From positions 1 to 61,943 of the forward strand of contig CAZGXJ010000004.1 of the NCBI GenBank assembly GCA_964529905.1: 61,943 nucleotides of DNA, in the 5' to 3' direction. The position numbers and the translations under genes are program-made. The notes beneath the pieces were generated by a model. The model was given only the letters and a program-made list of their open reading frames with translations. It was not told the DNA's origin and ran no database searches. Below, piece by piece: positions 58,983 through 61,943 of the stretch (position 1 is the stretch's first letter; the number at the start of each line of letters is the position of its first letter). Source of the DNA: an uncultured Nitrososphaeria archaeon. GTDB lineage: Archaea > Thermoproteota > Nitrososphaeria > Geothermarchaeales > JDFR-13.

Positions 58983-60146
58983 GTGGTAACTATGAGGATA
59001 GATGTAAAACTATATAAAGAAGTTTCAGACTTAATAAATGAGGCTAGACTCCCTTATAGGTCATTGATAGATAATCTGAATAGATATATTTCAACTAGAT
59101 ATATTGAGTTTACAAAGCTATATCACATCCTATCCCTACTTAGGAGCCTAGATAAAATCAATTATCTAAACATAGCCTCTGAAGCTGTTAAGACCGTTAT
59201 AAACAGTCAGATATCAGAAGGAGACACCGTCATCCATAAAGACGATTTCTATGGAGTTAAGGTTAAGGGAGAAGCATCTACATTTATTGAAGGGGGTTTA
59301 CCAGATCTCCTAGAGAAGGGGGAAAAGATCATTAGAGGCGAGACTCCATCAATCATATCGACATGTGCATCCCTAGAGATATTGATCGAATATTCGATAG
59401 AGACACAATACTGGGACGATGATATAGACAATACACTGAGGAATGGATATAAATATCTCCTTTTAAGGGATTTAAATAGAGATGGATTACTGGAGCAAGA
59501 TCCTAAGGAGGATTGGATATATCTACTTAGGAGGGGAGGGGCAACCTTATCATCCAACTCAATCTTCCTTAAGTTCTTGGAGGATATGTATTATCTATAT
59601 ATAGACAAGGATAGGGAATTCGGTGAGGAGATTAAGAGGAGATATCTAAGGCTATATAGGGATATAGAGGGGTATTTCTGGTTGGATGGCTTCTATGCCG
59701 ACTATATAAGTGAAGCCTTTAATATTTTCTATAGATCTACTATAGACACGTCTCTAATCGGTAGACCGATAATTTCAAGGGAGGGAGATAAGCTATATAA
59801 CCACTTTAGGAATACATTGGATAAGCTTATAGTGAATGGAGTAATCCTCGCTACTGAGGATAGGGTAAGGATATCTCCCGAATATAGACTTAGGGGATAT
59901 ATAGCCTCCACATATCACTCCACCATATATGTCTATGACATTCTCCAGAACGGATTCTTAGATCTAGCATTAAGGGCGTTAAAATACATTATTCCAAATC
60001 ATAGGTATAGCTACATAATATTCCGTGAAGATGGCATGGTTAAACGGTTAAAATCTCGGGATAGTAACCAGGAGCTACTCCTCCTATTAACATATAAGAA
60101 ATTCGAGGATATGGTTAGAGGGGGTGGGGAGCATCAGCTGGCTTGA
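58983..60146 (+). CDS. Divergent (alpha/alpha)6-barrel glycoside hydrolase-like protein (amylo-alpha-1,6-glucosidase-like)
   Basis: D.NRDGLLEQ...EDW...RRG...SN..F and FW..G.YAD pattern; C-terminus overlaps the structured element. Confidence 0.5.
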   Translation: MVTMRIDVKLYKEVSDLINEARLPYRSLIDNLNRYISTRYIEFTKLYHILSLLRSLDKINYLNIASEAVKTVINSQISEGDTVIHKDDFYGVKVKGEASTFIEGGLPDLLEKGEKIIRGETPSIISTCASLEILIEYSIETQYWDDDIDNTLRNGYKYLLLRDLNRDGLLEQDPKEDWIYLLRRGGATLSSNSIFLKFLEDMYYLYIDKDREFGEEIKRRYLRLYRDIEGYFWLDGFYADYISEAFNIFYRSTIDTSLIGRPIISREGDKLYNHFRNTLDKLIVNGVILATEDRVRISPEYRLRGYIASTYHSTIYVYDILQNGFLDLALRALKYIIPNHRYSYIIFREDGMVKRLKSRDSNQELLLLLTYKKFEDMVRGGGEHQLA

Positions 60147-60555
60147 TAGCCAGCTGTATCAGTCTCCATAGCCTCTCGGGCCCGGTGGAGATTTAGATAG
60201 TCGGGGGCTTGCCCGGTGAGATGGTGGCCAGCCATCCCCCGTGCCCCCTTCTATCTAAATCTCCAGAGGCTTATGGAGATGCTCCCTCCTTTTTTAATGG
60301 GCTCCCCCCACCACTTCAGAGGTTTCAGTTGATCTGACAGGTTTATCACCTAACCCTCCTAAGACCCTTGGGGATAGGCCCGTTTAGAGATACCCCTTGG
60401 AGACCGGGGTGTTCCCCCTAGTCTCCTTGGGGTCCATTACCCCCAAGGGTCTTGGGAGTTAGGTGATAAACCTGCCTTGGACCAACTGAAACCTCCTTAT
60501 AGGTGGGTTGGCCCAAGGCGGGAGCTTACAGCTGGCTATCAAGCCAGCTGATGCC
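60127..60555 (-). ncRNA. Unclassified ~430-nt highly structured GC-rich element (candidate large ncRNA; alternatively a non-autonomous mobile element)
   Basis: About 56% GC by hand count; 28-bp perfect terminal inverted repeats and nested perfect helices of 15, 13, 17 and 13 bp; G.U wobbles mostly favour the minus strand; TATA box at the expected distance. Confidence 0.6.
60131..60554. repeat. 28-bp perfect inverted repeats (60131-60158 / 60527-60554), each itself a hairpin
   Basis: GCATCAGCTGGCTTGATAGCCAGCTGTA and TACAGCTGGCTATCAAGCCAGCTGATGC; internal 9-bp stem CAGCTGGCT/AGCCAGCTG with a 4-nt loop. Confidence 0.95.
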
Positions 60556-60577
60556 ACTTATATGGGATTAATTAGAA

Positions 60578-60585
60578 GTTTTATA
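60578..60585 (-). promoter_or_regulatory. Candidate TATA box for the structured element
   Basis: Minus-strand TATAAAAC ending ~23 nt upstream of 60555, the edge of the terminal repeat; no clear BRE. Confidence 0.45.
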
Positions 60586-60616
60586 GATAATGTATATCTC
60601 CATAGCTTTTAGAGAG

Positions 60617-61943
60617 TCACACCCTACCCTTCTTCATAAACTGTTTATTATACATCTCCCTTAGCTCTCTAAGGGTTGCAACCTCTTCAGGTGATTTATC
60701 TTCCCTAATTCTTTTAATCCTAGCCAGTCTAAGGGCATATCCAGATTTATATTTAGGGCTTGCCTGGATCTCGTTAAAATCCACTTCAACAACTATCTGG
60801 GGTTTTACCCATACCCTATACCCCTCATCCCTAACTACGATTGATAGAAGCCTCTTAGTCATATACTGAAACTCCTCATCAGTTAAACCTTTAAAAGTCT
60901 TGCCTACAACTGTATATTCACCGTTCTCCTCGTCATATACTGCTAGGTAGTAGTCGCTTAGCCACCCTCTCCTACGTCCATGTCCCCACTCAGCTCCGAC
61001 AATGACTAGATCTAATGTCTCCTTATCCTTAACCTTTACCCAGAACCTCCCCCTACTCCCAAGTATATATGGTGAGTCGTCCCTCTTCAACATTATACCT
61101 TCATGCCCAGCATCAACAGCCTCCCTGAAGAGCTTCTCCGCCTCACTAGGAGAAGCTGAATATATCGTTTTTGATATATATTCCTTAGGAACCGTCTTCT
61201 CCAGATATTCCCTCCTACTTAAGTAATCCATGTCTATCAAGAGCTTCCCATCGATATATATCACGTCAAAGAGCTTCAAAGTTACCGGAATCCTCTCCAT
61301 ATACATCGAGATATCCTCAATCCTCCTAAACCTCTTCATCAAGTCCTGAAAGGGGAGAGGCCTTCCAGACTCCCTCTCATATGCAATAATCTCACCATCA
61401 TATATACCCTCCCTAACATCAAATTCTTTTGCTATAGATACTATCTCTGGGAAGCTAGATGTGGCCTCCGTTAGGCGGCGGCTAAATATCTTAACATCAC
61501 CATCTTTGATATGGATCTGGGCCCTAAATCCGTCATACTTATATTCCGCTGAAGCCGTGTTTACACCTAATATGTTATACCCCTCGAGGACGGAGGATGC
61601 TGGCTGTCCAAGCATCGGTCTCAAGGGTGTAAAGATCCTAGGTTTAATATCCTCAAATTTCACCCCTTCACTTATCAACTTAACCGTCTCATATAGGCTT
61701 CCTCTCAAGAGATATATTCTTCTAACATTATCCTCAGAAGTCTTCAATGCATACGCTATTGCTGATAATAAATGTCCATCTACAACACCTATTCTCATCT
61801 CCCCCATGATTATGTTCGAAAGCCAGATCCTCTCCTCATTATTTAATCTACCCATTAATGCAGCCAACATGTTAAACTTCTTCTTCTGACTATCCTTCCC
61901 CTTAGCCTCAGCAATCTTTAGAAATGTATGATAGATATCTAGG
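60617..61943 (-). CDS. lig: ATP-dependent DNA ligase (partial, N-terminus beyond right edge)
   Basis: PML, EYKYDGFRAQIH (motif I), YDGEI, FDVIY, EGIMLK, WVKVK, LR.ARI..IREDK; frame stays open to the window edge. Confidence 0.97.
   Translation of the reverse strand, partial: LDIYHTFLKIAEAKGKDSQKKKFNMLAALMGRLNNEERIWLSNIIMGEMRIGVVDGHLLSAIAYALKTSEDNVRRIYLLRGSLYETVKLISEGVKFEDIKPRIFTPLRPMLGQPASSVLEGYNILGVNTASAEYKYDGFRAQIHIKDGDVKIFSRRLTEATSSFPEIVSIAKEFDVREGIYDGEIIAYERESGRPLPFQDLMKRFRRIEDISMYMERIPVTLKLFDVIYIDGKLLIDMDYLSRREYLEKTVPKEYISKTIYSASPSEAEKLFREAVDAGHEGIMLKRDDSPYILGSRGRFWVKVKDKETLDLVIVGAEWGHGRRRGWLSDYYLAVYDEENGEYTVVGKTFKGLTDEEFQYMTKRLLSIVVRDEGYRVWVKPQIVVEVDFNEIQASPKYKSGYALRLARIKRIREDKSPEEVATLRELREMYNKQFMKKGRV

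Follow-up and report, generated by a model that had tools for sequence, protein, structure and literature searches.

A REPIN is defined as two inverted repetitive extragenic palindromic (REP) sequences placed around a spacer (PMC3337134). An intergenic element of similar appearance lies near one end of the DNA analysed here, a stretch of 61 943 nt (the window; contig CAZGXJ010000004.1 of an uncultured Nitrososphaeria archaeon) belonging to a 719-kb archaeal metagenome-assembled genome that is 84% complete and comprises 41 contigs. Like REPINs of the REP-RAYT system and miniature inverted-repeat transposable elements (MITEs), the element consists of two short inverted palindromes around a spacer, is intergenic and could fold end to end as a unit, and the original prediction was that it is a mobile element of this kind, mobilized by a HUH (RAYT/TnpA) transposase. 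It differs from such elements in several respects. REPINs are present in tens to hundreds of copies and typically have a spacer much shorter than the 368 nt seen here, whereas the window's element is single copy, has neither a RAYT/Y1 gene nor a target-site duplication, and encloses ~370 nt of conserved, covarying structured RNA with its own promoter, inherited vertically at a mostly fixed locus. We conclude that the element is very probably a chromosomal, single-copy, vertically inherited gene for a structured non-coding RNA, running on the minus strand from ~60557 to 60131 under its own TATA promoter. Its product would fold as a three-way junction of a closing helix (P1) and two long hairpins (arms B and A), with invariant motifs in arm A, the repeat arms being the two strands of P1. 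Our overall explanation, in which the 5' strand of P1 would also fold on itself as a placeholder hairpin, has in our judgement a probability of about 0.8.

The inverted repeat and the RNA gene

The 28-nt inverted repeat (I1) is perfect, as originally described: its arms at 60131-60158 and 60527-60554 are 100% complementary and enclose a gap of 368 nt. The description of the ends as hairpins is equally sound, both arms holding the palindrome CAGCTGGCT-N4-AGCCAGCTG (60135-60156 with loop TGAT, 60529-60550 with loop ATCA), which forms a 9-bp stem with a 4-nt loop. Two matches to this pattern compare with 0.01 expected, and none of 100 dinucleotide shuffles reached two. The 28-bp duplex is symmetric except for four central pairs. 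Direct reading also confirms GGGAGC at 60127-60132 and 60520-60525, TGCTCCC at 60280-60286 and GCTCCC at 60301-60306, as well as the lack of a target-site duplication at either border of the element, the flanks (border marked by a slash) reading ...TGGGGA/GCATC and GATGC/CACTTA. The element region is a GC island (0.53-0.64 against ~0.37 for the genome) and folds far more stably than its shuffles on either strand (z = -15 for the plus strand, z = -19.7 for the minus strand).

The pattern of sequence change identifies the inverted repeat as P1, the closing helix of an RNA, and not as transposon ends. In every species the non-palindromic centre of one arm covaries with that of the other (TGAT/ATCA, CATCTGAA/TTCAGATG, CGTCGAA/TTCGACG and GAG/CTC), and in nine lineages each of the 13 P1 positions tabulated forms a Watson-Crick pair. 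A third line of support is the self-complementarity of either strand, which is likewise non-random (local hairpin z of -3 to -6). The interior of the element covaries too. Of the 136 consensus pairs that RNAalifold gives within the genus, 52 show compensatory double changes, and when 12 family sequences from seven genera are compared over arm A, 92.4% of cells are paired, 18 of the 27 pairs have double changes, and the observed covariation score is reached by none of 500 shuffles and collapses in slid controls. In 14 of 15 homologues the more stable fold is that of the minus strand, on which G-U pairs are also commoner (23 against 6-7 in the congeneric genome G004, for example). The single P1 mismatches of two congeners, G003 and G004, are A-C when read on the plus strand but G-U when read on the minus strand. 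Compensatory pairs in the interior, the covariation of arm A, the greater stability of the minus strand and the G-U asymmetry thus argue for an RNA rather than a DNA element.

The predicted gene (60131-60557, minus strand) is ~427 nt long and is marked out by its GC content, strand-biased folding, covariation and occurrence as one copy per genome; the predicted RNA reads 5'-(A)GUGGCAUC...GAUGC-3'. All members of the family are three-way junctions that start with (A)GUGGCAU(C/U) and end with (G/A)AUGC. The helix end GCAUC/GAUGC is invariant family-wide, and P1 ranges from 12 to 31 bp. Arm B (60281-60525, minus strand) is a long, near-perfect hairpin whose length differs among genera and in which the apex, GGACCCC...GGGGUAUC...GGGCC, and a 5x5 internal loop, UAUAA/GAAGU, are conserved. 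The consensus for a kink-turn is a 3-nt bulge plus tandem G-A, which this loop does not fit, and that reading of it was rejected. The basal helix of arm B, GCUCCC/GGGAGC (60281-60286 with 60520-60525), is used by the minimum free energy fold and covaries, the G003 version being GCTCTTGCC/GGCAAGAGC (UU/AA).

Arm A (60160-60280, minus strand; ~115-125 nt across members) is the most conserved domain and is the one modelled by two covariance models, R1 (arm A) and R2 (family level); R1 matches 60167-60278 with 126 bits. The three invariant features of arm A are predicted to be unpaired or only partly paired. Its apical loop CUGGCCA (60225-60231, minus strand) is predicted to be unpaired with a probability of 0.96-1.0 and holds a palindrome, which is UGGCCA throughout the window's genus and GCCGGC in six other genera. 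At the base of the arm, a 3'-side bulge (60178-60183, minus strand) has the sequence GGGCCC, which is invariant in the 12-sequence alignment, occurs in every sequence from which arm A was extracted and is mostly unpaired in the predicted ensemble. Finally, an internal-loop motif, CCGGGCAAGCC (60205-60215, minus strand), lies opposite GGCAcGG in invariant columns of the family alignment. Among possible roles of the RNA, the likeliest would be that of a structural or scaffold RNA in a ribonucleoprotein or RNA assembly.

A TATA promoter is conserved ~22 nt upstream of AGUGGCAUC. In the window it reads ACAUUAUCUAUAAAA on the RNA strand (60579-60593, minus strand), the TATA box ending 22 nt before G60557. 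Eleven upstream regions from seven genera align without gaps and share, at fixed spacing from an invariant UGGCAU where the RNA starts, an ACA near -38 and a TATA box of the form (C)TATAAAA or TTAAAT, which ends ~22 nt upstream. A reading of TTTTATAGATAATGTATATCTC as a dif/Xer site was rejected, as this sequence aligns with the family-wide TATA/ACA block. Farther upstream, ~60-65 nt from the RNA start, lies the element TGTRAC (here TGTGAC; 60616-60621, minus strand), with invariant columns T14, G15, T16, A18 and C19. It overlaps the stop codon of the adjacent ligase gene in the window and follows that codon in G006 and G010. The element is present at fixed spacing in all seven genera, accompanying the RNA gene also in G007 and G009, where the neighbour is a different gene, and may bind a transcription factor.

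From two hydrothermal metatranscriptomes come contigs of 311 and 222 nt that lie, with ~95% identity, wholly inside the homologue of G008, with none on its flanks. We take these as a hint of expression and not as proof, since they carry no strand information and DNA carry-over is possible. In one of these contigs (run X4) 95 nt of the arm B apex are missing, with 4 nt of microhomology (L064:1079-1175, in the G008 homologue); a deletion in the strain, an artefact of assembly or reverse transcriptase skipping a stable hairpin would each explain this. Two hydrothermal metatranscriptomes contain no close relative of the window's copy, which also has no match among the indexed RNA runs. In run X2 (2025, library type not recorded) only two 151-nt records (60108-60402) fall within a 1.3-kb stretch, both inside the RNA gene and none on the flanks, too few to interpret.

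Searches of the window and eight relatives with the Rfam 15 covariance models at permissive thresholds gave no family match, the best scores being chance-level ones to microRNA models or DUF1874 (E at least 0.026), far under the gathering scores; the families covered included Archaea_SRP, RNaseP_arch, the Hgc RNAs, HEARO and the group I and II introns. A divergent signal recognition particle (SRP) RNA or RNase P RNA was considered and rejected, as the genes for both sit on other contigs of the same genome. The Archaea_SRP gene scores 178 bits at its own locus, and the RNase P RNA is a fragment at a contig end (G000:C37:3-133; 61.6 bits, under the cut-off), its partial state being an assembly limit and not a gene loss.

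The self-complementary 5' strand and alternative explanations

The 5' strand of P1 (the right repeat arm, 60527-60554, minus strand) is self-complementary, CAGCUGGCU-UGAU-AGCCAGCUG, and so provides a candidate co-transcriptional placeholder hairpin. Because it is self-complementary, the 3' strand that pairs with it (the left repeat arm, 60131-60158, minus strand) is palindromic too, which leaves one extra feature only to be explained; the apparent double palindrome probably reduces to a single selected feature, the self-complementary 5' strand of a long-range helix. The local 5' hairpin of the window has a folding energy of -16.6 kcal/mol (z = -5.7), and z lies between -3 and -6 in the window's genus, L073, G010, G008 and L076. 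Self-complementarity is limited to the window's genus, L073 and G010/L074, and more weakly G008/L076, which are the lineages with ligases nearest to that of the window. Within this clade the hairpin stem turns over (CAGCUGGCU, GGCCAGCCC, AGCCAGCC, AGCCGGU, CAUCAGCCGGUU), both sides change at hairpin positions 6, 9, 10 and 12 across nine lineages, and the hairpins include G-U pairs on the RNA strand. The 5' hairpin is better kept than the 3' hairpin: in G001 and L071 a perfect 10-bp 5' hairpin (CAUCAGCUGG/CCAGCUGAUG) is accompanied by a truncated 3' arm that cannot fold on itself, and in G010 the hairpin of the 5' arm is 12 bp long and that of the 3' arm 7 bp. The 3'-terminal ...GCUGAUG recurs, in several lineages, within the inner half of the 5' arm.

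We tentatively propose, with somewhat less than even confidence, that the 5' hairpin may act as a transient co-transcriptional placeholder. The 5' strand would fold on itself first, during transcription, and the hairpin would sequester and protect it while the next ~370 nt are made; the emerging 3' strand would then displace the hairpin by strand exchange or branch migration to give the far more stable P1. A comparable event is described for the SRP RNA of Escherichia coli, in which a non-native 5' intermediate rearranges by toehold strand displacement (bioRxiv 10.1101/379222). If the proposal is right, the self-complementary 5' strand would be a case in which programmed co-transcriptional folding could be tested in a hyperthermophile.

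Several points weigh against the overall explanation. In genera g2, g3, g4 and g6 the 5' hairpin is absent, or other local pairings take its place, and it is therefore not needed for the core function of the RNA. Concerted changes in short quasi-palindromes can arise from template-switch mutation without selection. The advantage of P1 over the two-hairpin state, 12-26 kcal/mol between 37 and 95 °C in forced folds in silico of five lineages, was calculated with nearest-neighbour models, which had to be extrapolated to the high temperatures. Finally, the transcript evidence consists of two short contigs from a relative, possibly DNA carry-over.

The original prediction also held that the ends form a conformational switch, in which end-to-end pairing alternates with local hairpins closed by GGGAGC/GCTCCC helices. 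Self-folding of the arms is real, and is kept by compensatory change in the genus and its nearest relatives. The proposed closing helices have fared less well: they are possible in the window but specific to it, G003 having GGGTGCA against TGCTCTT, and they were rejected. With P1 favoured by 12-26 kcal/mol at every temperature examined in silico, an equilibrium switch that exchanges the end-to-end helix for a local hairpin at each end, whether a thermosensor or one triggered by a ligand or protein, is very unlikely and the 5' hairpin would be only transient. In its favour, either pairing can form in this clade and compensatory change maintains the two of them, but the auxiliary helices of the alternative fold are not conserved, G001 has lost the 3' hairpin, and that of G010 is weak. 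As for mobility, a REPIN- or MITE-like non-autonomous element, with hairpin ends recognized by a HUH (RAYT/IS200-type TnpA) transposase, would account for the two inverted palindromes around a spacer in an intergenic position and for the different neighbours of the element in two genera (G007 and G009), where the RNA gene and its promoter lie beside a MoaE-like gene instead; such rearrangement is normal at family depth. However, the whole element and the 28-nt arm of the element each occur once in the genome, and CAGCTGGCT-N3-6-AGCCAGCTG is found only at 60135 and 60529 across all 41 contigs, so that the hairpin motif is confined to the two arms. Allowing three mismatches adds just two loose matches genome-wide, and BLAST of the arm against the genome gives no other match longer than 11 nt. 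PF01797 (Y1/HUH transposase) has no match in the window's genome (G000, 84% complete) or in three of its four congeners (G002, G003 and G004); the fourth, G001, has one, on an unrelated contig. DNA runs that contain the locus have no reads joining the flanks without the element, there is no target-site duplication, and 13 of 14 family genomes carry one copy, with its conserved promoter and covarying interior. The G-U asymmetry, moreover, indicates selection at the RNA level. By the terms in which it was first put forward the mobile-element interpretation is refuted, and we regard it as almost certainly wrong; the result is a clean negative, in that a textbook-looking architecture of two inverted palindromes turns out not to be mobile.

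Two further explanations take the RNA as given and concern its symmetry. One is that the palindromic loop of arm A, the GGGCCC bulge and, in this clade, the P1 strands pair between molecules to give homodimers or higher-order assemblies like those of ROOL, GOLLD and OLE. Natural RNA-only homo-oligomers exist (bioRxiv 10.1101/2024.12.08.627333; PMC12990946), and the unpaired palindromes of arm A hint at self-assembly: the loop has two states family-wide, both of them 6-nt palindromes, GGGCCC is invariant and predicted to be unpaired, and the arms are long and rigid, of variable length but with conserved tips. Yet a single switch of loop sequence has been seen (effective n = 1), GC-only hexamers are palindromic by chance 1 time in 8, and the palindromic P1 is confined to a sub-clade, and we consider self-assembly unlikely. 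The other is that the symmetric P1 duplex, or the DNA that encodes it, is the site of a homodimeric protein, or else that the palindromy is a neutral by-product of quasi-palindrome template switching. A duplex that is symmetric over 28 bp save its four central pairs would suit a dimeric protein, the family-wide invariance of GCAUC/GAUGC suggests recognition, and a word common to P1 and the arm A loop co-changes in the genus, so that one common reader is possible. There is no candidate protein, however, RNase III and Ro/TROVE having been looked for across the family and not found. The palindromy is also missing in deeper genera that keep GCAUC/GAUGC, and G-U pairs inside the hairpins favour constraint on RNA over constraint on DNA. 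We consider this pair of explanations quite unlikely.

The word in question emerged from a comparison of the arm A loop (60223-60233) with the rest of the RNA. Of 14 complementary words of at least 6 nt (6-7 nt), 13 lie inside P1 (60131-60158 / 60527-60554), though P1 makes up ~13% of the RNA. The word, complementary or identical between loop and P1, is GCCGGC in six genera and GCUGGC/GCCAGC in the window's genus, both sites having co-changed once. A partner for the loop in cis was considered and rejected, since nearly all complementary words belong to P1 and are thus paired already. The co-change, a single evolutionary switch, is compatible with a contact that guides folding, with a common protein reader or with self-assembly.

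Distribution and gene neighbourhood

The full set of homologues comprises 26 sequences of 336-491 nt. Each of four congeneric species has exactly one (that of G003 is 75% identical over its full length), and two metagenome contigs supply further copies of the genus element. The single arm A matches to R1 extend over all seven genera of the family, and the only family genome without a match is 74% complete. A weaker second match lies in arm B of G011 and G013, and arm B of genus g2 (L060:823-938 and L061:1033-1147) likewise matches the arm A model weakly, at 35-41 bits; these probably reflect the generic resemblance of long hairpins and not a duplicated domain. Beyond the family, R1 had no match in the order's two remaining families or in 387 further genomes of the class, nor did R2 in 400 genomes sampled from the phylum, with the caveat that the strict filters of Infernal may miss weak matches. 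The relatives derive from hydrothermal samples, and the RNA, which is previously undescribed, is restricted to one family of hydrothermal-vent archaea.

The RNA gene is directly preceded, on the same strand, by the 3' part of an ATP-dependent DNA ligase gene (60617-61942, minus strand; Pfam DNA_ligase_A_N, _M and _C). On the other side, a convergent open reading frame of 387 aa (58983-60146, plus strand) overlaps the end of the RNA gene on the opposite strand, its last 16 nt, stop codon included, falling within the 3' strand of P1. It has no Pfam match, and homologues of it lie downstream of the RNA in G010 and G008/G012. The ligase precedes the RNA in five of the seven genera and in 11 more metagenomic loci, which were reached through ligase homologues of 54-83% identity. 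Their order is PolB, DHH protein, DNA ligase, a gene-free gap of 450-560 nt and a convergent open reading frame, with an R2 match in every gap. The DHH-family gene is RecJ/GAN-like, and the PolB-DHH-ligase cluster lies directly before the RNA gene in L068-L078. As a rule, then, the RNA gene stands last in a cluster of replication/repair genes. At a twelfth locus, where the ligase is 51% identical, there is no gap and no RNA gene. In its place, a geranylgeranyl-reductase-like gene lies 42 nt past the ligase (L079:3085-3126), and the locus represents either the edge of the RNA's distribution or a case in which the RNA gene has been relocated.

Comparison with known RNAs

GC-rich non-coding RNA islands, such as the Hgc RNAs, are known in AT-rich hyperthermophiles. 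The window's RNA resembles them in being detectable as a GC island (0.53-0.64) in a genome of 37% GC, and differs in being much larger and in having no match to HgcC, HgcE, HgcF or HgcG. With SRP RNA (E. coli 4.5S, archaeal 7S) it has in common that the 5' and 3' ends form a long helix. The likeness may go further, in that a non-native 5' hairpin of E. coli SRP RNA is replaced via strand displacement (10.1101/379222), a rearrangement that we infer for the window's RNA. In contrast with SRP RNA, the motifs of helix 8 are absent from it, and the genome has its Archaea_SRP gene elsewhere.

The kissing-loop dimerization of human immunodeficiency virus type 1 at its dimerization initiation site depends on a 6-nt self-complementary sequence in an apical loop of 7-9 nt, which stays palindromic despite changes between lineages. 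The arm A loop is comparable by analogy only, the RNA here being a cellular one from an archaeon.

To our knowledge, no large structured RNA family is known in archaea beyond rRNA, RNase P RNA and SRP RNA. In bacteria, the families OLE, GOLLD, ROOL and raiA each opened a new line of RNA biology. It is interesting to speculate that the window's RNA could be the first archaeal 'ornate' RNA-only (or RNA-dominated) assembly, multimerizing through the arm A loop and GGGCCC, with P1 installed by hand-over from the 5' hairpin, possibly guided by the word common to P1 and the loop; taken as a whole this is a long shot. If it were true, the position after the PolB-DHH-ligase cluster could point to a function connected with DNA replication or repair. 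The ends, domains and invariant unpaired motifs of the RNA are defined well enough for it to be synthesized, probed and imaged. Like OLE, GOLLD, ROOL and raiA, it exceeds 300 nt, has an ornate multi-helix fold with strong covariation and is lineage-restricted, and its predicted unpaired self-complementary elements could likewise mediate homo-oligomerization. It differs from them in being archaeal (Geothermarchaeota-like, from hydrothermal vents), in having no similarity to their Rfam models, and in its simpler architecture, a three-way junction dominated by two long hairpins.

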